DNA of 52,329 nucleotides from Escherichia phage Mangalitsa: the sequence record NC_048799.1. The stretch is one strand, 5' to 3'. The notes under the pieces are model-generated. The model did not search any database and had not been told where the DNA came from. It saw nothing but the letters and a program-made list of their open reading frames with translations. Positions 2,877 to 45,583 of the stretch are shown here, piece after piece. Numbering within the stretch: the first letter of the stretch is position 1; each line of letters starts with the position of its first letter. Position numbers and translations under genes: made by a program.

Positions 2877-2896
2877 CATTAGTTGGATGTGAAGTA
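2877..2896 (+). promoter_or_regulatory. phage-RNAP-type promoter CATTAGTTGGATGTGAAGTA
   Basis: Motif family member; the prefix GATATTCGACATTAGTTGG is shared with the copy at 10780. Confidence 0.55.
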
Positions 2897-3288
2897 ACAG
2901 AATACGGAGAAGTATTACTCACGTTGTTCGTGGGTTTCCGCATGTCATGTTGAAATCATTCTAGAAACATTTCAGCATGTCAACTAAACATACAGTGTTG
3001 TAATGATGTGGCAATCATTGAACTCCCTGTCTTTGGCCAGACAAAGTTCCAACAACCATGTGTGAAGTAGGATTATTATTCGAAACTGTTCTTCAACTAA
3101 GGCATGTTCACTTGTTTCAATATTGCTTCATCTCCTATTATCAAGGCCCACCCACAAGCCGGGAGATAACTTTGGCAAGACTGGAACTTTTGGACATGCT
3201 TCTTTCTTTCAATCAGAATTCGAAAGAAGAGAAGAGTCGGAGCAAAGTGGCATTACGAATCCCGTAGCCCGCCCCGATTTTGAGCAAC

Positions 3289-3306
3289 AAATATTGTGAC
3301 AATATT
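3289..3306. repeat. inverted-repeat 18-mer AATATTGTGACAATATTG, copy 1
   Basis: Exact duplicate at 3538..3555; imperfect palindrome. Confidence 0.65.
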
Positions 3307-3537
3307 GTCGCAGTATGGCATGTAAATATTGCTACAAATTGGCATGTTAGAATGTGGCAGAATTGTTAGAGGACTAATCACCTCGAAGATACAATTGTCT
3401 ACCAATCCGGCATGTTAATTTTGTAACAGTATTTGTGCCAAATTCGCATGTATTAGCTGTATCAGTATTAACCCAATATTCTTGCAACCCGCATGAATAC
3501 TGGCTTCCAGCCAAGCGAAGGCTTTATCATCGCATGT

Positions 3538-3555
3538 AATATTGTGACAATATTG
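3538..3555. repeat. inverted-repeat 18-mer AATATTGTGACAATATTG, copy 2
   Basis: Exact duplicate of 3289..3306. Confidence 0.65.
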
Positions 3556-3748
3556 GGATAAAACCCTTTATTTAATTAGTTTTATTATGCTGTACATGGT
3601 CGGTTTTCCGTACCTGCTGCGCCACTTCTTGATGTGCCAAATACATTCCAAGATAGGAGCAAACCTGTAATTAATGATGCATGTTTAGTTGTGACAAAAT
3701 TCGTCTATTTGGCAGATGAATTAGTTGCAATTAAGCATGTCCATTTAT

Positions 3749-3768
3749 CATTAGTTGCATGTGAATAA
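3749..3768 (+). promoter_or_regulatory. phage-RNAP-type promoter CATTAGTTGCATGTGAATAA, preceded by a partial copy at 3721..3734
   Basis: Identical to the 2621 copy; tandem partial motif TTAGTTGCAATTAA lies 28 nt upstream. Confidence 0.6.
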
Positions 3769-3869
3769 GACCAAATCTCTGTAAATTCTGCTGAAATTGT
3801 GTGGCAGATTTTAGAGAGATTATGTCTCCAAGCTAATCATTGTAGTTTTCGGCACTTCATGTGTCACAT

Positions 3870-3933
3870 ACTCCCTACAACTTTAAGGTGGATTGAGGTA
3901 AGACAAGACCTCCACAATCGTTCTGTAGGGAGT
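3870..3933 (+). other. structured 5' leader hairpin upstream of gene 3959
   Basis: 10-bp perfect long-range stem ACTCCCTACA / TGTAGGGAGT enclosing an inner GAGGT/ACCTC hairpin; sits between promoter 3749 and the RBS at 3948. Confidence 0.4.
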
Positions 3934-3958
3934 TTTCTTTTAACTTTGGAGAATAAAA

Positions 3959-4207
3959 ATGGATACTGTAATTAAAGCTGCTTGTTTCAAAGACCTGCAA
4001 GATGGTCAAATCTTCACTGTTCGTTCTGTGAAGTGGATTAAAGTAAATGAATCAGATAAGTACAATGCTGTAAAGTTCTTTGATTCAAGTAAGGCATGTA
4101 CTTTTAGCGACAATATTGTTGTCAATATTGAAGTCGAATTAACTCCTGAAGACGAAGATATTGAAGTGGCTCTTCGTAAAACTGCTGGATATAACGAGGG
4201 ATTCTAA
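3959..4207 (+). CDS. hypothetical early protein
   Basis: ORF with GGAGAA RBS; no recognisable motif. Confidence 0.5.
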   Translation: MDTVIKAACFKDLQDGQIFTVRSVKWIKVNESDKYNAVKFFDSSKACTFSDNIVVNIEVELTPEDEDIEVALRKTAGYNEGF

Positions 4208-10610: not shown

Positions 10611-10785
10611 GATTAAAGTCCTGGAAAAAGATAATGTAACCTTCACACGCCAATGCCAGTTGTGTGCCTCTGTTGTGTCTTATGAATTCTCTGACTTAAA
10701 GATGCGCACAGGAAAGAATGACCGAGGATACTTCGCATACAGATTTATTCCTTGTCCTGTTTGTAAGAAAGATATTCGACATTAG
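10609..10785 (+). CDS. hypothetical zinc-ribbon protein (58 aa)
   Basis: CQLC ... CPVC pairs; stop codon lies inside the next promoter motif; below ORF-track cutoff. Confidence 0.45.
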   Translation: MIKVLEKDNVTFTRQCQLCASVVSYEFSDLKMRTGKNDRGYFAYRFIPCPVCKKDIRH

Positions 10786-10799
10786 TTGGAATTGGAGAA
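10780..10799 (+). promoter_or_regulatory. phage-RNAP-type promoter CATTAGTTGGAATTGGAGAA
   Basis: Motif family member; transcription would enter the GC-rich 10800..11434 leader. Confidence 0.5.
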
Positions 10800-11434
10800 A
10801 CAACATCAGATAATAACTTTGTAACTCGGTAGACCGTTGCGGCCGCATCGTGAGAGAATGTTCGACTCATTCTGCAAAGTTATTTTCGATGGAATGTTTC
10901 CATCACATACATTTATCTTTTAACATAGGCCAAAGGGCCGGAATACTTCTTCGCAGAAAAGCTATTCACTTGTTATAGGCGATGTATTGGGATGAATTGG
11001 AACTAAATAAGCAAGCTGTTAGGGCTGAATAATTAGAGGGTAGTGCCTCATGCTTATGTTAGTCATTCGAAAATAGGTTTGTGCCACAAGCTGCTGGTGC
11101 TCTGAGGAAGTCGGACAAACAGGGCTTAGAGTGGCATAATCCGCACAAAACCTCGCCACCAGCTATGCCAAAGCAGGTGGATTGGGTGAATGTATTGGGA
11201 AGGGTTGCAAAGCCTCTGTGACACGCCTGAGCCGCAAGGCGACGACACTCATGTGATTAGCGTATCGCACCCCTAACGGGAGTAACCCTTCACCAATGCA
11301 GTTATCCAGAATTGACACAAACGGTAGGCAGCGGCCCGATTTTCGGCCTTCCTGCGCTGCCCTGTGGCCTGTTTCCTGGGCCAAAAGATGAGAAGAGAAG
11401 TCACAAACACTGAATCGAAAATTGGAGAGTTCCT

Positions 11435-11749
11435 ATGATTCGTAAGCATTCTGCCAAAGTTTTGACATTGAGAAATGTCCTCATGCCATTAACAGGAAAA
11501 GAGGAAGAAACAATCCACTTCGTCCTGATTGGTGGACGTTGGTACTATAATGGGACAAACGCCTTCGAAGTTACCAAGTCCCTCAAAGACGGGTTCTGGA
11601 AGAACAATATTAAAGAAGTTCTTTCGGTTAGTGCAAACTACACCCTCGGAGAAGTTAAAAGATTCTTCTACCATGGCCCAAACAAGTCCATGCAAATTGC
11701 AATGCGCGAGTGGACAACAAACCAACCAATTTACGGAGTACCATTTTAA
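11435..11749 (+). CDS. hypothetical protein ending in YGVPF
   Basis: GGAGAG RBS; C-terminal hydrophobic-Pro-Phe. Confidence 0.5.
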   Translation: MIRKHSAKVLTLRNVLMPLTGKEEETIHFVLIGGRWYYNGTNAFEVTKSLKDGFWKNNIKEVLSVSANYTLGEVKRFFYHGPNKSMQIAMREWTTNQPIYGVPF

Positions 11750-12059: not shown

Positions 12060-12734
12060 ATGTCTTATCATGATGACGACAAAGAAATTGCACTTTCTAC
12101 GTGCAAGCAATGGCTCAATGATAATGATGCCGTCTATCTTGCCAAGGAAGATGTTATCATCATGTGGGTCCATTTTAATCCAGAATCTAAACGCGGTGAG
12201 TGGCAACGCTACAAAATGAAAGAGGCTTGCCGAATCATTAAAGCCACTCGCGCTGGCTTCTCTGCGATGAAGTATATCAAACCAGAGATGCTCATGCTTG
12301 CTGCACAAGAAGAAGAACGTGCTTACAAGCAAGCTGTTAAATCTCGCTCAACTGTTCCTCCAGAGTTCTTTAATCTGGAGCGCGCTGGACACTTCAACAA
12401 TTTAGAAATGTTGACATTGTGCATGTTGCAAGAATTAGTTGGAAGAGGAATGAACATTGAAGCTGTTTGCCTTGGGGAACTCATGAAAGAGTTGTTCTTG
12501 ACAAAGGGCTTTGCTGTGCCTAATCGCACGCTTCGTTGGAAACTGCTTCGTGCTGTTGAAGGTGAAGCTGGTGTGATTATCCGTGACCGAACCAACCGCA
12601 TGACTGTAACAGGTGTGGGACGTTTTGTTGCGATTCAAATCGAGGGCATTGACGACTCGATTACAACTGAACTCACTGTCGCCGAGACAAAGGATTTAGT
12701 GATTAAATCAATCGAACGATTCAATATGTATTGA
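12060..12734 (+). CDS. hypothetical protein (224 aa)
   Basis: Long ORF, no recognisable motif. Confidence 0.55.
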   Translation: MSYHDDDKEIALSTCKQWLNDNDAVYLAKEDVIIMWVHFNPESKRGEWQRYKMKEACRIIKATRAGFSAMKYIKPEMLMLAAQEEERAYKQAVKSRSTVPPEFFNLERAGHFNNLEMLTLCMLQELVGRGMNIEAVCLGELMKELFLTKGFAVPNRTLRWKLLRAVEGEAGVIIRDRTNRMTVTGVGRFVAIQIEGIDDSITTELTVAETKDLVIKSIERFNMY

Positions 12735-12764
12735 GTCGTTTGTTAAATCAGAGCAGTTCTGAAA

Positions 12765-12784
12765 CATTAGTTGAATGTGAAAAG
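12765..12784 (+). promoter_or_regulatory. phage-RNAP-type promoter CATTAGTTGAATGTGAAAAG
   Basis: Motif family member upstream of the acidic protein gene. Confidence 0.55.
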
Positions 12785-12857
12785 AGAAAGGCTCTTTAAT
12801 TTTATCTAAGTCACGCCACCGTGGCGTGCAAAACTATTTAACATAAGGTATATACAA

Positions 12858-13196
12858 ATGGCTAAGATTGTAACCGTAACTCAGTATGAAGCTAACGATG
12901 GTTCCCTGTTCCTGAGCGAAGCAGAATGTAACGCACACGATTTTAAACTGGAAAACGGTGCTAAAATCGACGCAGCTGTTGAAGCGTTCGCCAACACCAT
13001 GAAACTGGTTGACCGTTCTCGCTCCATGCAGAGCAACACTGTTGCATCCTTCCTGGCATTCTACCTGCCGTGGGTTGAAGCTGGTTGCCCGGAAGTTGAA
13101 CGTGTTGCGTTCGACACTCCGAAAGAAGTCAAAGTTGCCGAAGCAGAAGTAGTTGAAGCTGTTGAAGCTGCTGTGGAAGAAGCTCCGGTATTCTAA
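12858..13196 (+). CDS. small acidic protein with acidic tail ending in PVF; candidate DNA mimic or replisome-docking protein
   Basis: About 20 Asp/Glu against 9 Lys/Arg; tail VAEAEVVEAVEAAVEEAPVF; codon usage typical of highly expressed enterobacterial genes (CTG, CCG, CGT, GAA). Confidence 0.55.
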   Translation: MAKIVTVTQYEANDGSLFLSEAECNAHDFKLENGAKIDAAVEAFANTMKLVDRSRSMQSNTVASFLAFYLPWVEAGCPEVERVAFDTPKEVKVAEAEVVEAVEAAVEEAPVF

Positions 13197-14041
13197 GTTG
13201 CCAAGGGCAAACTTGAGAAGCTAAGCTAATTCGATCTGGCACGCACTGGAAGATTTCCGGTGCTGCCTTGAACCCATTCCGGCGTGAGTGGGCTTCAATG
13301 AGCATTCTTGTGATTAGAGTTGGGAGGTAGGCCGATGCCCAATCTCGTGGCCCAGACAAGAGTGTTCATTGAAGTTATTTCAATATGGATGTACAGTAGG
13401 ATGAGAAGCTTCTCCGATAAGAGGAGTGAAAGTAGCTGGAAGGACATGCCCACAGAACTGACCGAGACCATTACAGTAGTAGCGATTCACTACCGCGAAA
13501 CAGTATTGAAATTGGCAACGGTTCATGCGGAAGGGCATCAGTGAAATCTACGTTCAGTGCGCGTGGTGAAATGAAGGAGTAGTGTCCTGAGAATTAGCCC
13601 TGTCTGGTTAAATGCCAGAGTCCATATTAAAGTAACTGGAAACTATTCCTGTCAGGTACTCCTATAATGTCTGAAACGGAGTCAGGTCGCACCTGGTAGC
13701 CGAGGCTATTTACCTACAGATGGATACCTGACAGAAGTAGTTTTCTGAGTCTTACGACGGGCCTAAACTGCCTGGAGTTATTGCGACTGTTTTATTCATT
13801 TAAAATAAATGCAAATGATTCTGAAATGCGAGTTGCGGCTTAATTAAATTTGAGTCCTCTCCGTGGTCTTCCAATCCCATGTAACCAAATTTGGCGCATT
13901 GTGGCTTCGAGATGTGATTAATAAATCGGAGCAATAATTAATTTGTATTCTGCGATGCAGGGCAGGCTTAAGTCCCTCAGTGCGCGTAGGGATGTGATAG
14001 AGTACAAACTTAATTATTAACCTAACCTATAGAGAAACATT

Positions 14042-14296
14042 ATGGAAAGCATTGCCGTATTAATTGTTGGTGTTCTGTTGTTTGCTGCATACATGATTCC
14101 AACTCTCATTGCATTTAGTCGTGGTCATGCTTCCAAGTGGGGCATTTTCATTACAAATCTGTTACTAGGTTTAACAGGAATCTTTTGGGTTGCTGCATTA
14201 ATCTGGTCGCTGTCCAATAAAGGTCAGCAACAATCTCTTGTTGTAAATGTTGGCAGTAATAATGTCAGCAATGTATCACAAAAGGATTCGCTTTAA
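14042..14296 (+). CDS. superinfection-immunity-like small membrane protein
   Basis: Two predicted TM helices; MIPTLIAFSRGHASKWGIFITNLLLGLTGIFWVAALIWSL fits the A..R.H....I..N.LLG.T.I.W..A.IW pattern I recall for this family. Confidence 0.5.
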   Translation: MESIAVLIVGVLLFAAYMIPTLIAFSRGHASKWGIFITNLLLGLTGIFWVAALIWSLSNKGQQQSLVVNVGSNNVSNVSQKDSL

Positions 14297-14543
14297 GTGA
14301 ATTGCCCTGAGCATGGAAATAAACTGCTCTAACCGATGGTATCTACAAAGGTAGATTAAATCAGGTTGCCTGTTGGTACTTGGGTTCAACACCTGCTTGC
14401 ACTCGCAAAGTAGTGCCTTGTACCTGAGATGAAGTGAGTCGGGACCATCAATCCCACGTTATGTCAAAACACAGTAGGCGACTCACAGATTCTACAAGCC
14501 TCGCAGTTTGGGAAAACCTGCGTTACCAAAACCCACCTCATTC

Positions 14544-14639
14544 GGACGAGTAGCTCAGAAGGTCTGCTCCAGAGCTTAGTCAGGTAGAGCAATCTGTTCG
14601 ACAGATGTGTCGTTGGTTCGAATCCAACCTTGTCCACCA
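14544..14639 (+). tRNA. tRNA-like gene with an expanded D region; candidate anticodon UCG (Arg) if the anticodon loop is GTTCGAC
   Basis: 7-bp acceptor stem GGACGAG/CTTGTCC, canonical T-arm GTTGG-TTCGAAT-CCAAC, discriminator A and encoded CCA; D-arm-like GCTT-AGTCAGGTA-GAGC preceded by about 20 extra nt; 93 nt before CCA. Confidence 0.4.
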
Positions 14640-14669
14640 GCTTTAATAACCCGCAACACTGGAGTCCTT

Positions 14670-14810
14670 ATGGATTTTGATGCACTTGATAACTTAGACT
14701 TCGGTGCTGCCGAAGAAGCAATTGAAGAACTGAAGAAGAAACAGGACGAAGAAGCAATCGTTCCTGGTGCTGGCGACAACGACTGCTCAAGTGGTGCGTG
14801 CGCCATCTAA
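14670..14810 (+). CDS. hypothetical small acidic peptide (46 aa) with Cys-containing C-terminus
   Basis: GGAG RBS; MDFDALDNLDFGAAEE...GAGDNDCSSGACAI. Confidence 0.35.
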   Translation: MDFDALDNLDFGAAEEAIEELKKKQDEEAIVPGAGDNDCSSGACAI

Positions 14811-14818
14811 GGTGAATC

Positions 14819-15055
14819 ATGCAACAGCTTAAGTCAATCTTTCTTGGCGTCTTGACTGCATTGGGTATTCTCCTTGCAGTGTTCCTCAAAGGCAAAAGCT
14901 CAGGCAAAGCCGAGGAGCGCCAGGAAGCCAAAGAGAAGCAATTCGATTCCATTAAAGAATCTATCGAGATTAAAACGCATGTTCAGAAAGAAGTGTCTAG
15001 CAGTTCTGATAGCAATGTCGATAGTGAGTTGCTCTCAAAGTGGGTTCGTAAGTGA
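14819..15055 (+). CDS. small membrane-anchored protein, possible i-spanin-like
   Basis: N-terminal TM IFLGVLTALGILLAVFL followed by a charged helical region; AAGGTG RBS. Confidence 0.4.
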   Translation: MQQLKSIFLGVLTALGILLAVFLKGKSSGKAEERQEAKEKQFDSIKESIEIKTHVQKEVSSSSDSNVDSELLSKWVRK

Positions 15056-15188
15056 TTACTGCATGATTGCACAACCAATATATTTGGATGTTGCAGAAGT
15101 GAAAGTTTTGTCACGCGAAACCAAAACACAGATTTTAGTCCACAATGAAACGTGGGCACAAAAGTGTTCGAAACTTACCCGACAGTGA
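14979..15188 (+). CDS. possible o-spanin-like lipoprotein overlapping the preceding gene in the +1 frame
   Basis: MFRKKCLAVLIAMSIVSC: positive n-region, hydrophobic core and lipobox-like IVSC; starts inside 14819..15055 and extends past it; rare codons weaken the call. Confidence 0.3.
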   Translation: MFRKKCLAVLIAMSIVSCSQSGFVSDYCMIAQPIYLDVAEVKVLSRETKTQILVHNETWAQKCSKLTRQ

Positions 15189-16085
15189 GTGAACAAGACG
15201 GACGTCTATAACTTCCCACATAAAGTCGAGGGAGTGCGCGACTTTAAATAACGAGACTCTAGCCACTTGTGGTATGGCAGGTGTAATTCCTGCAAGTTGC
15301 TCTGGGCATAACAATTGAAATTGCTGCCTCGCATTGAACGCGAAAAAGTTCAGGTAGTCACTTCCTAGAACAGTGGCCGGGAACAGACCTAGACAAAAGT
15401 GCTTGAGAACGTTAGCTCTGTCTTGCCAGCATTAATGGCACGTTGGCCGCGTAAAGGCCACAGCGTCTGACCAACGTATCGGTCAACCAAATTCAACGGA
15501 TTCGTAGAGTTAATGAAACCTGCACGATGGGATAGGGATGAAGCATCCGAGGCCGACTGTGTAATTGTGAACGCGGAGTTCACCGAATCCACCAAATCAA
15601 TGGGCTAGTGCAAATGTCAGTCACTAGAAGATGTGTTGCAAAACGTCTTCCATGATGTGCAAAGTGTCAGTCACGTGCCCACCACTTTCCTAACAGTTAT
15701 GCCTCTGTTCAAAAGGCTCATGCGAGCGTCTGGCATACCGTAGCGATACGGCTTAGTTGCGCTGATTGTGTTGTGTCGAAAGAAAGTTCAGGCTTTCGTT
15801 TGAGTTCCTCCTCATCTCGAAGTTAGCTGGATTCAAAATCCAGACTATGTTCCTATTCACATGAAATATGCAAGTCGAGGGTTCTTAATATCTGACATAG
15901 GTATTAAGCGGGTTTATACTTTTCCCCGATGGTCCCCATAAACAAGGTTGATTCACTTGGGCGGTTCGAATCAAATTTAATAAGTGTCTTGGCCGCAGTG
16001 GAAACATCATTTAAGCCAATTTATTGTAATGTTCGTAATAGTCCACGTCAGGGCACTTACTTAAATTTTATCTAGAGAGAGAAAC

Positions 16086-16307
16086 ATGAAAACTGCTGAA
16101 ATTGCCGAAGAGATTTATATGGCCTTAATTGCCAACCAAATTACAAGTGAAGTCCTGCACATGGATATTGAAGAAGTTCGCAAGGCCTTTGGTGGTTTTG
16201 CAATCTTGTCAATCGAAGCTGCGGAAGCACTGACAAACACGTACAACCATCGTGAATACGAGAAGCGGTCTGTACTAAATGCGTCGCTTCAAGCGTCATT
16301 AAAATAA
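16086..16307 (+). CDS. hypothetical protein
   Basis: ORF with GAGAGAGA RBS. Confidence 0.45.
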   Translation: MKTAEIAEEIYMALIANQITSEVLHMDIEEVRKAFGGFAILSIEAAEALTNTYNHREYEKRSVLNASLQASLK

Positions 16308-17019: not shown

Positions 17020-18783
17020 ATGAACGTCAAGCAATGTGTTGCCAAGATTAAGCACGATGTACCAGACTGTAAATCCACATCTGGCAAGTCTTTACAGGTT
17101 TGGTTGAATGTCGATGAAGCTGGTAATAAGAACTTCTCTGGTTACTGCTTTGCATGTGGCGTTCTCGTTCCGAATCCGTACGGCAATAATCCGGAGAATA
17201 TTCCGGAAATTAAAGTCAAGACTCCAGAAGAAATTCAGGAAGAAATTGACGAAGTAACCTCGTGCCCTCCGTTTGATTTAGACCATCGCAGCATTGAACC
17301 AGAATTCTGGAAAGCTGCTGGTGTTCGCCTACTCTACTCAGAGTTTGATGGCAAAACTCCAAATGCTTTGGCGCATGGGTATACCAAGAATGGCAAACTT
17401 GTTCGTTGGAAGATTAAACTTCTGAACAAGAAAGTCATGTGGTCTGTTGGCGATACTCAGGGTAATGACCCGTATAACTGGATGGCTGCAAAAGCAATTG
17501 GCGGTAAGACACTGTTCATCACAGAAGGTGAAGAAGATTGTATCGCATTGCGTCAAATCCTCAAGACTATGAACCGTGGTGGTGCATATGAAGATTTGGA
17601 TTTTGCTGTAATTAGTTTGAGTGATGGAAGTGATTCCGTACATAAATGTTTGTCACCAGTTGCAGAAGAAATTAAGCAACGTTGGGAGCAGGTTGTTATC
17701 GTATTTGATGATGATGAACCTGGTCGTAAAGCTGCTAAGGAAGCATGTCGTTTGTTGCCTGGTGCAATGATTGCAACACTTCCAGCTAACGATGCCAACG
17801 ATTGTCTGAAGCGTGGTTTGCTCAAAGCCACTCAGTCTGCTGTTGTATTCCGTGCTGCCCGTCCTCTCCCCACAGCACTCGTCAATAAAGAGCTTCTTAT
17901 GGAAGAGCTTGATGATGAAGTTGAACAGGGTGTGGACTATCCTTGGCCTAAGTTAACCGACTTAATGTTTGGTCAGCGTCGTGCCGAAGTTATCTCAATT
18001 GGTGGTGCAGAAGGTGGTGGTAAAACCACACTGTCACGACAGATTGTGCATCACAACATTGTTCAGCATGATTGGGGAGTGTTTACTGCATACATGGAGG
18101 AAACTCCAGCAGAAACATTACGCCGTATGGCTGGCCTTAATGACAATTTGCCATATTGGGAACCTGCGTTTACACGCGAAGACCCTCGATATGATGAAGC
18201 TAAGTTCCGTCAAACTGCTGCGAAGATGCTTCGTAACATGGAGATTTGGGACCGCAAGCAAGCTGGAGAAGACCCTTATGAAACTTGGGATGGGTTAAAG
18301 ACGATTCTTCGTCAGATTGGTCCAGACATTGATATGTTTGTTCTTGATAACTTAACCTATTTATCGGAAGGGATTTCTGCGTCAGAGAAGAACGACTTTC
18401 TGGGCAAGCTGTATGCAGACATTACAAAGTTAGCAGACCAGTACCAGTTCCACGTTAATATTCTGTCGCACCTTAACCCTGTGGCAAAAGGGCAACGACC
18501 TCATGAAGATGGTGGACGTATCAAGAAGTCAGACTTTACTGGCTCTCGTGCTGCTGCTAAATATTCTCATGGTATGTTTGGTTTTGAGCGTAATAGTCAG
18601 GCAGTAGACCCAAACTGTTCTATTATTCGTTCCATCAAAGCTCGTAAGAGTGGTAAAACAGAAGGCTTCAAGACGTACTATGATACAGACTCAGGTCGAA
18701 TCATTCAACGTTCTTGGGAAGATTCACTGTTTGAAACTAAAGAGATTGTTCAACTTACTAAGAAGAACGGTCCACACCAATAA
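17020..18783 (+). CDS. bifunctional primase-helicase (T7 gp4-like)
   Basis: N-terminal Cys pair, TOPRIM-like ITEGEEDC and VFDDDEPG, helicase Walker A GGAEGGGKTT and Walker B FVLDNL. Confidence 0.8.
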   Translation: MNVKQCVAKIKHDVPDCKSTSGKSLQVWLNVDEAGNKNFSGYCFACGVLVPNPYGNNPENIPEIKVKTPEEIQEEIDEVTSCPPFDLDHRSIEPEFWKAAGVRLLYSEFDGKTPNALAHGYTKNGKLVRWKIKLLNKKVMWSVGDTQGNDPYNWMAAKAIGGKTLFITEGEEDCIALRQILKTMNRGGAYEDLDFAVISLSDGSDSVHKCLSPVAEEIKQRWEQVVIVFDDDEPGRKAAKEACRLLPGAMIATLPANDANDCLKRGLLKATQSAVVFRAARPLPTALVNKELLMEELDDEVEQGVDYPWPKLTDLMFGQRRAEVISIGGAEGGGKTTLSRQIVHHNIVQHDWGVFTAYMEETPAETLRRMAGLNDNLPYWEPAFTREDPRYDEAKFRQTAAKMLRNMEIWDRKQAGEDPYETWDGLKTILRQIGPDIDMFVLDNLTYLSEGISASEKNDFLGKLYADITKLADQYQFHVNILSHLNPVAKGQRPHEDGGRIKKSDFTGSRAAAKYSHGMFGFERNSQAVDPNCSIIRSIKARKSGKTEGFKTYYDTDSGRIIQRSWEDSLFETKEIVQLTKKNGPHQ

Positions 18784-18870: not shown

Positions 18871-20784
18871 ATGTATGCCAGTGACATTGAAACAACTGGT
18901 TTGTTGGAGCAGATGAAGAAACAGGCTGCACCACGTCTTCACAACATTGGATACATTGATGTTCAAACTCGTGAAGAAACTGTAATTGAGTGGACGCAAC
19001 GAAAATCCATTCAAGACTTTCTGGACACAGGTCCAACACTAATCATGCACAACGGCGCAACCTTTGACTTCGAAGCATTGAAGTTCCTTGGTTATGACGT
19101 TTCAAAATGTACTCTGATTGATACACTATTTATCAGTTGGTATCTCCAACCTCGTCGTGTTAAGCACGGACTTGAAGGTTATGGTGAAGAGTTTGGTGTG
19201 CCTAAACCAATCATTGATGATTGGGAAAACCAAACACAAGAAGAGTACAACCATCGTGTACTGGAAGACTGTAAGATTCAGCACAAGTTGTGGGAACAGC
19301 AGTATATCCAGTTACTCAAGATTTATAAGACTCCATCTGAAGTAAGACGCTTTGTTGAATACTTGATGACCAAAGCTCGCCAACAGGTTATTCAGCAACG
19401 TACTCGTTGGAAGTTGAACATTGAGAAGGCATTGGCATTTAAGGCCAAGCTGGAACCAATGATTAAAGAGAAGACCGACGCATTAGAAGCATCAATGCCG
19501 AGTATTCCAGAATATGCAATCAAAACTCGTCCAGCCAAATGCCACAAGCTAAATGGGCAGTTGTCTGCCACTGGACTTAAGTGGAAAGCTGTTTGTGATG
19601 CAAACGGTTTAGACTGGAAAGACCCAGACTTGGCTATCAAAGTTCTAAAGGGTTATAAAAAGCCAAACGCTGGTTCTCATGTACAAATTAAAGATTGGCT
19701 ATTCAGCTTAGGCTGGGAGCCAGAAACATTTAAGTTTGACCGTAATAAGGAAACAGGCGAGACTCGCCAGATTCCTCAAATTACTGTAAAGGATGAAGAT
19801 GGCAATCCTGAAATCTGTCCGAGCTTGCATAAGCTGGCAGAAAGAAACCCCGACTCCGGTATTCAACACCTTATTGGTATGGGCGTGTATAAACATCGTC
19901 TGTCTGTTGTTAATGGTTTCCTTCGCGACGTCGATGAAGATGGATTCCTTACTGCGCGATGCGGTGGTCTTACCAATACTTTACGTCTTAAACACCGCGA
20001 ACTTGTTAACCTCCCTTCTATTCGCGTATTTGGCGGTGAAGAGCTTCGTTCAATGTTGGAAGCGTGGCGCGAAGACTACGAACAGTTAGGCTCTGACTTG
20101 TGTTCACTGGAAGACCGCTGTAAGCACCACTTCCAATGGATGTATGACCCTGAATATGTTAAGAAGCAGTTGGCACCAGACTATGATGCTCACCTTGCAA
20201 TTGGCGTAATCGGTGGGTTCATCACTGAGAAAGAATCTCAGGACCATAAGGATGGAATACAGAAATGTAAGCAACGTCCAATGTTTAAGACCACTAACTA
20301 TGCTTGTCAATATGGTGCTGGCATTCCAACTGTTGCTCGTTCTGCCGACTGTGACCAAGCAACGGCTGCGCGTCTACATAAAGCATATTGGGACTTGAAC
20401 TGGTCCATCAAAGAGATTGCTGCTAACACTAAAGTAATTACAGTTGATGGTCAGATGTGGCAACAGAATCCAGTAAACAAATTCTGGTATTCGTTGCGTA
20501 CAGAGAAAGACCGATTCTCAACACTGTGTCAGGGCACTGGTGCATATGTGTTTGACATTTGGTGTAACAACATTATTGCAATTTGTAACGAACGTTGGGG
20601 ATGTGACCCGCTTCTGTCTGGACAATTCCATGATGAATTGATTCTCCAGGTTAAGAAAGGCTTCCGCGATTTGTGGACGGACTTGCTTAATGAAGCAATG
20701 GACCGAACCAACAAAGAACTTAAACTTAACCGTGATTGTGCATGTGATGTGCAGTTCGGTGATAACTACGCAGAGATTCACTAA
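18871..20784 (+). CDS. family A DNA polymerase with 3'-5' exonuclease domain
   Basis: Exo I motif ASDIETTGL; Pol A motif B-like KTTNYACQYGAG; C-terminal His. Start uncertain (ATG 18871 or GTG 18850). Confidence 0.8.
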   Translation: MYASDIETTGLLEQMKKQAAPRLHNIGYIDVQTREETVIEWTQRKSIQDFLDTGPTLIMHNGATFDFEALKFLGYDVSKCTLIDTLFISWYLQPRRVKHGLEGYGEEFGVPKPIIDDWENQTQEEYNHRVLEDCKIQHKLWEQQYIQLLKIYKTPSEVRRFVEYLMTKARQQVIQQRTRWKLNIEKALAFKAKLEPMIKEKTDALEASMPSIPEYAIKTRPAKCHKLNGQLSATGLKWKAVCDANGLDWKDPDLAIKVLKGYKKPNAGSHVQIKDWLFSLGWEPETFKFDRNKETGETRQIPQITVKDEDGNPEICPSLHKLAERNPDSGIQHLIGMGVYKHRLSVVNGFLRDVDEDGFLTARCGGLTNTLRLKHRELVNLPSIRVFGGEELRSMLEAWREDYEQLGSDLCSLEDRCKHHFQWMYDPEYVKKQLAPDYDAHLAIGVIGGFITEKESQDHKDGIQKCKQRPMFKTTNYACQYGAGIPTVARSADCDQATAARLHKAYWDLNWSIKEIAANTKVITVDGQMWQQNPVNKFWYSLRTEKDRFSTLCQGTGAYVFDIWCNNIIAICNERWGCDPLLSGQFHDELILQVKKGFRDLWTDLLNEAMDRTNKELKLNRDCACDVQFGDNYAEIH

Positions 20785-21056
20785 TGAAAACTGTATACTC
20801 TATTTTCGATATGCAGGAGTTAGAGCATCATATGTTTGCTACTGATTCCGAAGTTCTCGCAAAAGACGCCGTAATGGCGTTTCTTGAAAAGATTAAGGGC
20901 AACGTATTCGCTTCGTCCGACCCACAGTCTCAAGCACTTAACGATGAGACATTTAAAAGCCTCCAATCTTTAATCTCGGCAACGACTTCAATTGAAGAGC
21001 TGTCCGAAGCATTAGTTGGATACGACTTCCGTCTTGCAACATTGCAAGTCGATTAA
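20784..21056 (+). CDS. hypothetical protein
   Basis: ATG overlaps DNAP stop. Confidence 0.5.
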   Translation: MKTVYSIFDMQELEHHMFATDSEVLAKDAVMAFLEKIKGNVFASSDPQSQALNDETFKSLQSLISATTSIEELSEALVGYDFRLATLQVD

Positions 21057-21084: not shown

Positions 21085-21951
21085 ATGGCATTTGCTGCTC
21101 CTACCCTGGCCTCGAACAAGACTCCTTCTGCTGCACCATTACTGGAAGCGGGTGGTTATCCTGCTCGTGTTTGCCGTATTATCGACCTGGGCCTACAGCC
21201 TGGTTCTGCTAAATATCCTACCCCGTCTCTGAAACTTCTGGTTTCTTTCGAACTTCTCGACGAGTACATGAAAGAAGTTGATGGCGAAGGTAAAATGGTC
21301 ATGGTCCAAGACCCGGACGAAGATGACGGCGTAATGATGGCGAAGAATCTTGAAGACAAGCCGCGTTGGTTTGACTTTGAGTTTACCTACAACGCTGACG
21401 GCTTCATGGGTGACAACTCCCACATCTACAAATTCGCTAAAGCGATTGATGCTCTGGAAGTTAAACAGAATCTGGAACAAGGCATTCAGGGCCATCCTGC
21501 CAAGAACCTGCCAGATTGGTTGGGCGAACCTCTGATTGTTGGCATTGTTCAGTATACCAAGCAGTCCGGTAAGAATGCTGGCCAGGTTGCAAACAAAGTT
21601 GCTACCTTCTCTCCGATGAAATCTAAGGAGAAGAAAGAAGCTAAAGCTCTGGTTAACCCGACTGTCTTCTTTGACATGTCTGAGCCGGACCTGGAAGTAT
21701 TCAACAAACTGCCAGGTGGCGAATCTCCGTATGCAATCAAGAACCGTATTACTTCCGGTGTTGATTTCTACAAGACTAAGCTGTCTGCACTATTAGGCGG
21801 TAAGCCTGCCGATGAAGGCGCTGTACCGAATCAGGCTTCTGATGAAGAAGTTGATGCAGCTATGAAAGCTGAACTGGAAGCACAGGCTGCTGCAAAAGCA
21901 CAGCGTGAAGCGGAAGGTGGTGCTGCTGGCGGTACTGGAATGCCCTTTTAA
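21085..21951 (+). CDS. candidate ssDNA-binding or annealing protein with flexible tail ending in GMPF
   Basis: Sits immediately after DNAP; high-expression codon usage; Ala/Gly/Glu-rich C-terminal region ending ...GGTGMPF, reminiscent of gp2.5 or SSB tails. Confidence 0.35.
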   Translation: MAFAAPTLASNKTPSAAPLLEAGGYPARVCRIIDLGLQPGSAKYPTPSLKLLVSFELLDEYMKEVDGEGKMVMVQDPDEDDGVMMAKNLEDKPRWFDFEFTYNADGFMGDNSHIYKFAKAIDALEVKQNLEQGIQGHPAKNLPDWLGEPLIVGIVQYTKQSGKNAGQVANKVATFSPMKSKEKKEAKALVNPTVFFDMSEPDLEVFNKLPGGESPYAIKNRITSGVDFYKTKLSALLGGKPADEGAVPNQASDEEVDAAMKAELEAQAAAKAQREAEGGAAGGTGMPF

Positions 21952-31825: not shown

Positions 31826-32833
31826 ATGCCAAAGATGATTAAACTGGCCGACGGTTCTGAATTCGAACTGAACGACGCCATCGCTCGTATTCAGGATTCT
31901 GGTACTGTTCCCCTGAACGACGACGACGCAGTATTCTTCCAACGTCAGCTTGAGTTCATTGAAGCTCAAACTTACGACACCCTGTATCCTGAACTGGAAG
32001 CTCGTGCAGCTTTCGGCGTAGATACGACTGGCGGCCCTGGTGTTAACACCCTGACCTACCGTTCATACAACCATGTTGGTAAAGCACAGGTAATCAACGC
32101 TCGTGCAACCGACCTGCCGAAGTCCAGCATTTCTGGTAAAGAATACAGCGTAACTGTTAAGTCAGTTGGTACTGCATTCGACTACGACATTGACGAAGTT
32201 GCCGCTGCTGCTGTAACTGGTCTGCCGCTGGAAACTCGTAAAGCAAACGCTGCTATCCGTGGTTACGAGCAGTATGTAAACTCTGCTGCATGGTACGGCG
32301 ATGCTGCTAACGGCTTCGTTGGCTTCTTCGAAAACCCAGACATCACCAAAGCAACTGTTGCTCAGGGTGCTGGCGGTTCTACCGAGTGGGCCGAGAAGAC
32401 TCCGACCGAAGTTATTGCTGACCTGACTGCTGCTGTGTCTGCAATGTATGCTTCTACTCTGAAAATCATGCGCCCGGATGAAATCTGGATGCCTGTTGAG
32501 CATGAGCAGTACATCTTCAACACTGCACGTTCTGAGCAGTCTGACAAGACGATTGGTCAGTTCTTCATTGACAACAACCAGTTCATCAACTCCCGCGATA
32601 AAATCAAGGGTCTGAACGCAATCAAAGGTCACGGCGATGCTGGTTCTGATTGCTTCGTTGTTGTTTGCCGCAATGCAATGGGCAACCGTACTTTCCGTCT
32701 GCGTGAACCTCTGCCGCTGACCTGGCAACCGGTACAGCTTCATGGCCTGATTTATGAAGTACCTGGCCGTGGTCGTTTCGCTGGCTTCCAGACTATGTAT
32801 CCGGCTGCAATCAGCATCAACTCCGGCATCTAA
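31826..32833 (+). CDS. major capsid protein (lambda gpE-like)
   Basis: 335 aa, highly expressed codon usage, GGSTEW segment as in lambda E as recalled; position after the decoration gene. Confidence 0.65.
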   Translation: MPKMIKLADGSEFELNDAIARIQDSGTVPLNDDDAVFFQRQLEFIEAQTYDTLYPELEARAAFGVDTTGGPGVNTLTYRSYNHVGKAQVINARATDLPKSSISGKEYSVTVKSVGTAFDYDIDEVAAAAVTGLPLETRKANAAIRGYEQYVNSAAWYGDAANGFVGFFENPDITKATVAQGAGGSTEWAEKTPTEVIADLTAAVSAMYASTLKIMRPDEIWMPVEHEQYIFNTARSEQSDKTIGQFFIDNNQFINSRDKIKGLNAIKGHGDAGSDCFVVVCRNAMGNRTFRLREPLPLTWQPVQLHGLIYEVPGRGRFAGFQTMYPAAISINSGI

Positions 32834-44450: not shown

Positions 44451-45583
44451 CAGAAGACGGGTTCGTAAGAAAGCCCGTTACAGAAGTTGTTAAAAGCCTT
44501 AATAACAAATTCATTGCAGCGTTTGGTGCCAACTTCGATGTAAGTCCTGAGTCCCCAGATGGGCAGGTTATTGGAATAGTATCAGACGAGATTGCATCGT
44601 GTTGGGAACAGGCCCAGCAAGTGTTCAACGCATATCGACCTGGCGCTGTTGAAGGAGTCGGACTTGATAATGTTTGCGAACTTACCAATACTAAGCGATA
44701 TGTTAATAAACCATCCCAAGCAACTGTGTATTGCGATGGTACTGTTGGCACTCTGGTTCCTGCTGGCTCGCTTGTAAGTGATGGCAGTCGCCAATTCAGG
44801 CTGGATACTGATGTAACCTTACCTGGCGATGTTACTGCTATTGCAACCGAGCCTGGTGAATACTACATTGCTGCCGACACAATCATTAACATTCTAACTC
44901 CGATTTCTGGTTGGACGTCTGTAACCAACCCAACAATTGGTACAACTGGTGTTGACTATGAATCAGACCCAGAACTCCGAGCACGCCGTGACAAAACAAC
45001 GGCAGTCAATTCGGCCACAACGGCAGAAGCCATCTATGCTTCACTCGCTGACCTCGATATTGATTACATTCGTGTTCGTGATAATGATACCGATGCTGCT
45101 ATTGGCAGTCAGCCTCCAGGCACTGTCTTCGTTGTAGTTGATGGTGGCACGAGTAACGATATTGCTCGACGCATTTATAATGCCAAAACTGGTGGTGTTC
45201 CTACTTATGGTGACATTGAAATCACAATCAATGACTCTCGTGGCTACCCGCATCCAATCAAGTTTAGTCGTCCAGTTCGTACCCCAATCTTTGTCAAAGG
45301 TACTTTCCGTCGTCGCGCTTCTGCAAACATTAGTTCTAACGATGCTGCCGAAAGATTGCAGGAAGCTGCCATTGCATATTTAAACAGCTTACAACCTGGT
45401 GATGATGTAGTTTGGTCAAACATGTTCGGACCGATTATGTCTGCTGTACAGTATATCGAAGTTGATTCATTGTTCATTGGTTTGTCTTCAAACCCAACGA
45501 GCACTGCAACAATTGAACTAGACATTGATAAACGTGCACAAGGTCTGGAAGCTAACATTTCATTCACTGACGTAACGGTGTAA
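44426..45583 (+). CDS. baseplate J-like protein
   Basis: 385 aa following the W-like gene, overlapping start. Confidence 0.5.
   Translation: MATIQYGVTEDGFVRKPVTEVVKSLNNKFIAAFGANFDVSPESPDGQVIGIVSDEIASCWEQAQQVFNAYRPGAVEGVGLDNVCELTNTKRYVNKPSQATVYCDGTVGTLVPAGSLVSDGSRQFRLDTDVTLPGDVTAIATEPGEYYIAADTIINILTPISGWTSVTNPTIGTTGVDYESDPELRARRDKTTAVNSATTAEAIYASLADLDIDYIRVRDNDTDAAIGSQPPGTVFVVVDGGTSNDIARRIYNAKTGGVPTYGDIEITINDSRGYPHPIKFSRPVRTPIFVKGTFRRRASANISSNDAAERLQEAAIAYLNSLQPGDDVVWSNMFGPIMSAVQYIEVDSLFIGLSSNPTSTATIELDIDKRAQGLEANISFTDVTV

Follow-up and report, generated by a model that had tools for sequence, protein, structure and literature searches.

We analysed the gene at positions 12858-13196 (+ strand) of Escherichia phage Mangalitsa (NC_048799.1; the window is the whole stretch of 52,329 nucleotides) and the DNA that follows it. 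The phage belongs to the genus Carltongylesvirus of the Chaseviridae, which are phiEcoM-GJ1-like myoviruses with a T7-type single-subunit RNA polymerase; the closest records to the window have about 90% identity. Judged from its sequence, the gene, a member of the gp29 family, is a real and conserved one with all the marks of very high expression. Downstream of it, on the same strand, the region 13737-13935 is described here as a transfer-messenger RNA (tmRNA)-like RNA with a message part and a pseudoknot, lacking a tRNA-like domain. This RNA is widespread, and it is a more surprising object than the gp29 protein, whose family is uncharacterised and remotely reminiscent of YebG.

The gp29 gene starts with ATG and encodes 112 amino acids. 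Its homologues are gp29 of phiEcoM-GJ1, ORF32 of ST32, SA91KD_34 and ORF034 of PYps3T (phrog_17419), all annotated as hypothetical. It is preceded by a candidate promoter of the phage (single-subunit RNA polymerase) type, GAAACATTAGTTGAATGTGA, at 12761-12780 on the + strand. The core of this motif, CATTAGTTGNATGTGA, occurs exactly at five + strand sites of the window, and the complete 20-mer has six matches with at most three mismatches, compared to none expected from shuffled sequences. The records of phiEcoM-GJ1 (RefSeq) and SA91KD carry a putative phage promoter at the homologous position, both annotations being predictions and not mapped starts. The 5' untranslated region (UTR) contains the hairpin CACGCCA-CCG-TGGCGTG (12812-12828, + strand), present in the minimum free energy and centroid folds, and the pairing is kept in PYps3T (CACGTCATGATGGCGTG). 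Taken as a whole, the 5' UTR folds as shuffled sequences do (z=-0.04). A Shine-Dalgarno box TAAGG (12844-12848, + strand) can be read in the sequence 9 nt ahead of the ATG; the published table for ST32 gives ATAAGGTatatacaaATG as the Shine-Dalgarno box of the gp29 homologue, the same as in the window (PMC6266442).

The codon adaptation index (CAI) of gp29, calculated with the Sharp and Li weights, is 0.771, the first of about 85 open reading frames (ORFs), the major capsid protein having 0.668. When synonymous codons are resampled from the long genes of the phage, the CAI is 0.414 ± 0.041 and never exceeds 0.563, which places gp29 at z=8.7. Preferred codons account for 89 of 108, and only one codon is rare. 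The orthologues in other chaseviruses have CAI of 0.53-0.72. The product is acidic (pI 4.36; 20 D/E and 9 K/R residues), with a net charge of -5 in the folded domain and seven acidic residues against one basic residue in the disordered tail. An earlier sequence-only reading of the window had claimed for this gene a phage promoter of its own, a ribosome-binding site, codon usage of the most highly expressed genes and a small acidic product; these claims stand, the promoter as a prediction.

In the tmRNA-like core, which is about 190 nt long, a 5' motif AGTTTTC and an A/U-rich leader are followed by a tag frame, then by a hairpin and an H-type pseudoknot. The tag frame (13811-13843, + strand), GCA AAT GAT TCT GAA ATG CGA GTT GCG GCT TAA, encodes ANDSEMRVAA and directly follows an A/U-rich stretch (..AAAATAAAT); the SsrA tag of E. 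coli is ANDENYALAA. In about 130 loci the frame always has 10 codons and a stop. The 22 peptide variants include ANDDVVLMAA, ANEEMYLAVA, ANDEQFLAVA, ANDDLMLMAA and ANDNYALAAA. Inside each tag-peptide class the DNA variants are all synonymous, with six encodings for ANDSEMRVAA, and all four GCN codons are used for the last alanine. The stop keeps its fixed position at codon 11 and may be TAA, TGA or TAG. We consider this pattern of conservation as evidence for the tag frame being read. Another candidate, an AUG-initiated ORF in the +1 frame (MQMILKCELRLN in the window), was rejected: neither its length nor its sequence is conserved across groups.

The tag frame is followed by two conserved structures. 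Firstly, there is a 5-bp hairpin CGTGG-(TCTTCCAATC)-CCATG with a conserved 10-nt loop (13862-13881, + strand). Its stem has 14 variants, nearly all of them fully paired, with compensatory changes in three of the five pairs. Secondly, the region 13895-13932 (+ strand) holds an H-type pseudoknot with covariation in its two stems, in which stem S1 is formed by 13895-13900 and 13911-13916, stem S2 by 13904-13910 and 13926-13932, and the loop ATTAATAA is invariant. The sole variable pair of S1 is C-G in 89 sequences, U-A in 25 and G-C in 14, so that all 128 sequences are paired. S2 has 13 stem variants, 11 of them with Watson-Crick complementarity and two, each from a single locus, with one G-U pair. 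Stem S1 was confirmed on one of our alignments (A7). On this alignment 99.5% of cells are paired compared to 87.5% in shuffles (none of 500 reaches the observed value) and 30-58% in slid controls. This is the one pseudoknot found, 3' of the tag, and an equivalent of the upstream pseudoknot PK1 was not established.

The element is found in several unrelated phage groups. A sensitive DNA search showed conservation of approximately 13800-13935 in Ackermannviridae, in 45-50-kb Klebsiella and Acinetobacter phages and in Erwinia chaseviruses. A pattern scan of IMG/VR for the tag element yielded at least 120 contigs, and a BLAST search of GenBank phages yielded 702 records (248 from Salmonella, 228 from Escherichia, 90 from Klebsiella, 34 from Shigella, 29 from Erwinia), including phages of about 86-88 kb, some named Felixounavirus, and Ackermannviridae of about 157 kb. 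In nearly all of the 702 records the site is unannotated. The RNA is also present in at least one lambdoid contig, and as far as we have searched, the core is seen in phages only.

Standard tools do not recognize the core as a tmRNA. ARAGORN was negative at its default, 90% and 80% thresholds, and at 70% it called a permuted tmRNA with this very tag among ten obvious false positives, which we regard as noise. At the gathering score of Rfam the core is unmatched by any tmRNA model, and no tmRNA or tRNA match overlaps it. Below the thresholds, the permuted-tmRNA models give 12-27 bits (18-27 in related loci), compared to cut-offs of 47-84, and these matches fall on the same spot in six loci. Local alignment of the core with E. 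coli ssrA was no better than with shuffles. A tRNA-like domain, that is, an acceptor stem with G3:U70, a T-arm and a 3' CCA, was not found by ARAGORN, Rfam or inspection of the flanks, which differ from one phage group to another. It was sought in the conserved blocks of chaseviruses, in the flanks of the other groups and in nearby tRNA-like genes, and nothing common to all was observed.

One such tRNA-like gene lies at 14544-14639. It has the form GGACGAG...CTTGTCC-ACCA with the T-arm GTTGGTTCGAATCCAAC and about 20 nt inserted between the acceptor stem and the D-arm. In the window it is missed both by ARAGORN with default settings and by Rfam at the gathering score (27.9 bits for the tRNA model, the cut-off being 29). 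Its homologue is annotated in the phiEcoM-GJ1 record as 'tRNA-Arg, may contain an intron', and in other relatives ARAGORN calls the homologues tRNA-Leu or tRNA-Ser. As a candidate for the missing acceptor piece this gene was rejected, as it has A3:U70 and is self-contained.

The exhaustive ssrA survey of RefSeq viruses published in 2014 found tmRNA in mycobacteriophages only, and its authors added Bacillus phage G and mycobacteriophage DS6A from outside the RefSeq set (PMC4131195). The phage tmRNAs of that survey are either complete (mycobacteriophages, Bacillus phage G) or consist of the tRNA domain only (DS6A) (PMC4131195). The tmRNA database of 2025 lists 79 phage sequences (PMC11915505). 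The tag peptides described here were not found in the main text of published papers. The phiEcoM-GJ1 genome, sequenced around 2008, was presumably within the RefSeq set of the 2014 survey.

In the chaseviruses, neither the phage-promoter motif nor a sigma-70-type site on the + strand was found between gp29 and the RNA. Co-transcription from the gp29 promoter is thus the simplest inference, and the gp29 promoter unit most likely transcribes the downstream tmRNA-like RNA as well. Two loci outside the chaseviruses have TTGACA-N17/18-TAGATT just upstream of the RNA element, as read from another alignment (A6). In many contigs of 40-50 kb (e.g. L083, L098, L102) the module ACAACAGGTAAGAGCATTG directly follows the core. 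The same module occurs in phage lambda (L146) at 44788-44806, between Q and S, and one of the contigs bearing it (L030) is lambdoid by its lambda CIII thermoregulator. In lambdoid phages the element may therefore have its place in the leader of the late operon.

Trans-translation serves quality control throughout the bacteria. One possibility, which we take seriously while holding it short of probable, is that the gp29 promoter unit is an expression cassette for an RNA of a new tmRNA-like class without the tRNA-like domain, whose frame is read by ribosomes and by which phages impose or divert tagging. The message part would consist of a resume codon, a 10-codon tag of the proteolysis type, a stop, the hairpin and the pseudoknot. 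A tRNA-like piece provided in trans could help the ribosomes to read the frame, or they could enter it by some other route, and the tagged proteins might be stalled proteins of the host or of the phage. The gp29 protein might then be an accessory specific for chaseviruses, the RNA being shared with Ackermannviridae, the 86-88-kb and 45-50-kb phages and the lambdoid contig. If true, this would be new biology: a relative of tmRNA that encodes a tag, has no tRNA domain and occurs in hundreds of widely used phages of enterobacteria, among them chaseviruses such as phiEcoM-GJ1. About 700 genomes, in which the region is now blank or filled with tiny spurious ORFs, would then have their annotation corrected.

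At 90% identity the gp29 family forms 67 clusters, and at 50% it is covered by 19 representatives; most members come from phage contigs of 50-55 kb. Two members seem to be chromosomal, with a chasevirus-like gene set near the contig end (T7-type RNA polymerase, ArdA, pentapeptide-repeat proteins, primase-helicase, polymerase). All share one architecture: a conserved N-terminal domain of 89 residues, a variable disordered acidic linker and a phenylalanine in the terminal region; in the window these are residues 1-89, residues 90-109 and the tip P-V-F. The residues D14, G15, F18, D52, R53, R55, E81, R82, F85, D86 and K89 of the N-domain are invariant. The AlphaFold (AF2) model made from an alignment of 31 sequences is a medium-confidence monomer with a predicted local distance difference test (pLDDT) of 72.6. 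It has short strands at approximately 10-18 and helices at 21-47 and 52-74, that is, a beta-hairpin followed by a two-helix hairpin, and no regular structure beyond residue 74, with pLDDT below 50 at 93-105.

Past residue 90 or so the family members vary both in length (about 17-35 residues) and in sequence, the abundant residues being A, E, V, T, D, G and, in many of them, P. The tip is a hydrophobic residue followed by phenylalanine. The latter is invariant in all 31 close members, and the residue before it is usually V, L, M or I, with A or K in single members. The window protein ends with E-E-A-P-V-F, F112 being the terminal residue; proline at position -3 is present in some members only. 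Distant members (30-45% identity) end with EDDLF, EEDMF, EDELF, EGELF or DSLFL, and a few relatives have one or two residues beyond the phenylalanine (ELFAA, ELFPQ, DSLFL). The sequence-only reading had assigned to the protein an acidic helix ending in PVF and an SSB-like tail. The model supports the tail design, with a folded N-domain and a disordered acidic tail; the helix is not supported, as the segment is variable, often proline-rich and unstructured in the model. The terminal phenylalanine holds and PVF as a conserved unit does not. The likeness to single-stranded DNA-binding protein (SSB) extends to the globular domain, to the linker, which is flexible and acidic, and to the phenylalanine at the end, and stops short of a true SSB tip and of the oligonucleotide/oligosaccharide-binding (OB) fold.

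Database searches gave little for gp29. There were no matches in Pfam (no families at E up to 10), NCBIfam and PADLOC, and neither the single protein nor the family profile found anything usable among the PDB sequences. Functional data on gp29 were not found in the literature on phiEcoM-GJ1, Chaseviridae transcriptomics or YebG.

The gene of gp28 (12060-12734, + strand; 224 amino acids) co-occurs with gp29, and accompanies its relatives far outside the genus. It adjoins the gp29 relative in L005/L006 (37% identity), L011 (25%), L010 and L007, and lies 3.6 kb upstream of it in L012/L013. In one IMG/VR contig (L136) both proteins are identical to those of the window. The C-terminal half of gp28 is predicted to form a helical lid and a winged helix, similar in the model to the lid and winged helix of ORC/Cdc6. 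Fold search alone was informative here, as gp28 had no match in Pfam or among PDB sequences. Distant gp29 homologues (32-39% identity) precede replication genes by one to three genes. In L009 the gp29-like gene is followed by two ORFs and a DnaB-like helicase; in L012 it is followed by one ORF, primase-helicase and family A polymerase, with 5'-3' exonuclease and ligase further downstream. We take the place of the gp29-like gene in L012 to be that of gene 2.5 in T7 relative to primase-helicase and polymerase.

We tentatively suggest that gp29 is a replication-linked docking or adaptor protein; the role, the partner and the link to replication we infer, while the existence of the gene, its expression signals, its architecture and its neighbourhood are shown. 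The product would be a very abundant protein of the middle class. Its N-domain would act together with gp28, the winged-helix protein inherited along with it, or with complexes on DNA, and the acidic tail ended by phenylalanine would insert into a pocket, basic or hydrophobic, on a partner. Candidate partners of the tail are the DNA polymerase of the phage, its primase-helicase or some host protein able to read tails of this kind, the use of the tail being modelled on the acidic Phe-ended tails of T7 gp2.5, T7 gp4 and bacterial SSB. The pairing with gp28 and the position upstream of primase-helicase and polymerase in distant phages are consistent with a docking factor. A replisome-docking factor with a PF-type tail had also been among the proposals of the sequence-only reading, and the docking part is reasonable, whereas the PF-type SSB tip is absent.

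Several observations weigh against this suggestion. The main difficulty is that codon bias above that of the capsid gene suggests stoichiometric amounts, which would be unusual for a loader or adaptor and would better fit a competitor saturating host pockets. The fold match of gp28 is generic for winged-helix domains, and fold searches found no significant structural neighbour of the gp29 N-domain. In the window itself, gp29 is 3-4 kb away from the replication genes, with RNA genes and the Imm gene in between. Finally, as some relatives extend past the phenylalanine, its free carboxylate is not a universal requirement.

The competitor just mentioned could be a decoy for host takeover, the gp29 tail competing with the host SSB tail or with the ...LF clamp-binding motifs. 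It would occupy pockets of host replication and repair proteins and shut down host DNA transactions or block nucleases. The very high predicted expression suits a stoichiometric competitor. Distant members have the tips EDDLF, EEDMF, EDELF and EGELF, and clamp-type pockets are known to tolerate extra residues such as those after some tips. The exact E. coli tip, DFDDDIPF, terminates an SSB-like protein of the same phage (6939-7313, phrog_7364), indicating that the phage uses the tail-reading pockets of the host. However, the gp29 tip has neither the Pro-Phe and DDD of SSB tails nor the Gln of clamp motifs, and the conserved N-domain and the linkage to gp28 are left without explanation. We regard a decoy role as doubtful.

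A separate observation concerns other C-termini. The ORFs 2368-2568, 11435-11749 and 21085-21951 end with ..EIPF, ..GVPF and ..GMPF, respectively; together with the SSB-like protein they look like a set of Pro-Phe-ended proteins. For the last ORF (288 amino acids) the CAI is 0.53, and a motif resembling the promoter is present at 21010.

Could gp29 be a phage version of the SOS-induced YebG, with a part in the response to DNA damage or a function at DNA ends? One member of the family is named 'dsDNA-binding SOS-regulon protein' by JGI, the name used for YebG. Nine of the 31 family members have sub-threshold matches to Pfam YebG (best E 0.0079), and hhalign of the family against a YebG alignment gives probability 56.9% and pairwise E 1.1e-4. 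This alignment is shallow (at least 76% identity), and the match covers 54 N-terminal columns only, corresponding to the beta-hairpin and helix 1. Size and acidic C-terminus are similar as well. On the other hand, the window protein has no YebG match at E up to 10, gp29 and its relatives do not reach the Pfam gathering threshold of the family, the family profile fails to retrieve the solved YebG-family member 3ERM, and fold searches do not list it; a fold common to it and gp29 was not found. The beta-hairpin and the first helix are possibly remote homologues of YebG, which is not family membership. A YebG-type function is unlikely and would explain little, as the function of YebG itself is unknown.

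The sequence-only reading had also offered an anti-restriction DNA mimic of the Ocr/ArdA kind. The protein is indeed small, with pI 4.36, and is predicted to be highly expressed before replication, but nothing beyond size, charge and expression speaks for a mimic. There is no sequence or fold match to known mimics and the charge density is moderate, which makes this idea very improbable.

Hardly likely at all is a role of gp29 as the protein partner of the tmRNA-like RNA encoded by the same transcript (a chaperone, a substitute for SmpB or a ribosome-directed factor): although the gp29-then-RNA order is kept in every chasevirus examined with no separate promoter motif in between, and L005 retains an identical tag with a gp29 only 58% identical, gp29 is acidic, unlike SmpB, all other RNA-bearing phage groups have no gp29 within the stored flanks, and distant gp29 homologues exist without the RNA, so that each occurs without the other.

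Returning to the suggested docking protein, gp29 has the strongest translational optimisation in a 52-kb phage and no assigned function, and it brings to view a family paired with a winged-helix protein beside replication genes. Its conserved Phe-ended acidic tail offers a simple handle for finding the partner.

The DNA after gp29 had been described in the sequence-only reading as 840 bp of structured non-coding sequence. This holds insofar as no conserved protein ORF is present and 13190-13330 folds better than shuffles (z=-3.14), but the region is not a mere spacer, as it contains the conserved RNA. Three hairpins lie astride or just after the gp29 stop codon, at 13191-13219, 13238-13267 and 13268-13298 (13191-13298, + strand). 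They are candidate terminator, RNA-processing or mRNA-stabilising structures. The middle one is annotated as a terminator in SA91KD and is not followed by a U-run. The blocks 13197-13305 and 13735-14015 are nearly invariant in four chaseviruses, above the conservation of coding sequences; the 3' part of the second block, 13936-14015 (+ strand), is conserved in chaseviruses only. The segment between the blocks, 13306-13736 (+ strand), is variable; relatives have other sequence in its place or lack it, and in phage 4HA13 an HNH endonuclease gene occupies the corresponding gap, between gp29 and the gene that follows. The ORF 13335-13544 has CAI 0.19 and is not conserved.

A long-stem module was observed at 13296-13375, with GAGCATTCTTGT...ACAAGAGTGTTC around GGGAGGTAGGCCGATGCCC...GTGGCCCAGACA. 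It is situated ahead of the tmRNA-like core in the window and after the core in Erwinia phage Faunus (L029). Other phages have similar GAGCATTG...CAGTGCTC stems around variable inserts, some of them with a T-arm-like GGTTCGAATCC. Such modules may serve in processing or be tRNA-like.

All convincing genes of the window are on the + strand, among them those of the T7-type RNA polymerase (211-2325), the primase-helicase (17020-18783), the family A DNA polymerase (18871-20784) and the major capsid protein (31826-32833). Downstream of the RNA, 14042-14296 encodes an 84-residue membrane protein with a superinfection immunity domain (PF14373, E 1.4e-17; phrog_1039); relatives have other genes at this position. 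Stretches of 0.6-1 kb without convincing ORFs are also present in the early and middle region at 2879-3959, 10785-11435, 14296-14979 and 15188-16086, and relatives have similar annotation gaps, e.g. 1.4 kb in SA91KD. These stretches might contain further RNA genes.

Among known systems, the closest functional parallels for gp29 are in the phages T7 and SPP1. In T7, the acidic tails of gp2.5 and gp4 end in phenylalanine and bind the T7 DNA polymerase. Acidity, the terminal aromatic residue and a T7-like set of transcription and replication genes are common to both. However, gp2.5 has no relation to gp29 in sequence or fold, and the helical acidic domain of gp29 is not expected to bind single-stranded DNA. 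In phage SPP1, G39P has a small helical domain and an unfolded C-terminal half and loads the helicase beside an origin-binding protein. The pair G38P/G39P resembles gp28/gp29 in combining a DNA-binding protein with a small acidic one, folded and helical in its N-half and unfolded in its C-half, and in being encoded just ahead of the replicative helicase. No homology was detected, though, the window pair is 4 kb from the helicase gene, and the expression of gp29 looks far above the need of a loader.

Like gp29, bacterial SSB (DDDIPF) combines a globular domain with an acidic linker of low complexity and ends with a conserved phenylalanine. The two differ in that gp29 has no OB fold in the AF2 model and no SSB family match, in its tip (P-V-F or acidic-L-F instead of I-P-F, with no penultimate proline and no DDD run) and in the extension of some members past the phenylalanine, the true SSB tip being on a separate phage protein. 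T7 Ocr (gp0.3) is likewise small, acidic and highly expressed before replication, whereas fold and sequence show no likeness, and the charge density of gp29 is lower and concentrated in the variable disordered tail. YebG (PF07130; E. coli b1848; structure 3ERM) has approximately 100 residues, an acidic C-terminus and an N-terminal beta-hairpin of the type '..Y....DG..F.s..EA.a.D..L' followed by helices, all as in gp29, but not the gp29-family motifs DRSR and ERTVFDTPK or the terminal phenylalanine.

The RNA shares with tmRNA (SsrA; Rfam RF00023, RF01849-51, RF04321) the 10-codon tag frame that starts with a GCA alanine codon after an A/U-rich stretch, the AND...AA-like tag with its hydrophobic ..AA end and the fixed stop, followed by a hairpin and a pseudoknot. 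It differs in having about 190 nt and one pseudoknot, and the search for a tRNA-like domain, an acceptor stem with alanine identity or a CCA found none. The nearest counterpart among phages is DS6A, whose 'TLD-only' tmRNA has the tRNA-like domain without the tag (PMC4131195, PMC11915505). Both are phage-borne partial tmRNA-like genes that retain the reverse parts: the tRNA-like domain in DS6A, the tag and the pseudoknot, with no tRNA-like domain found, in the RNA described here.

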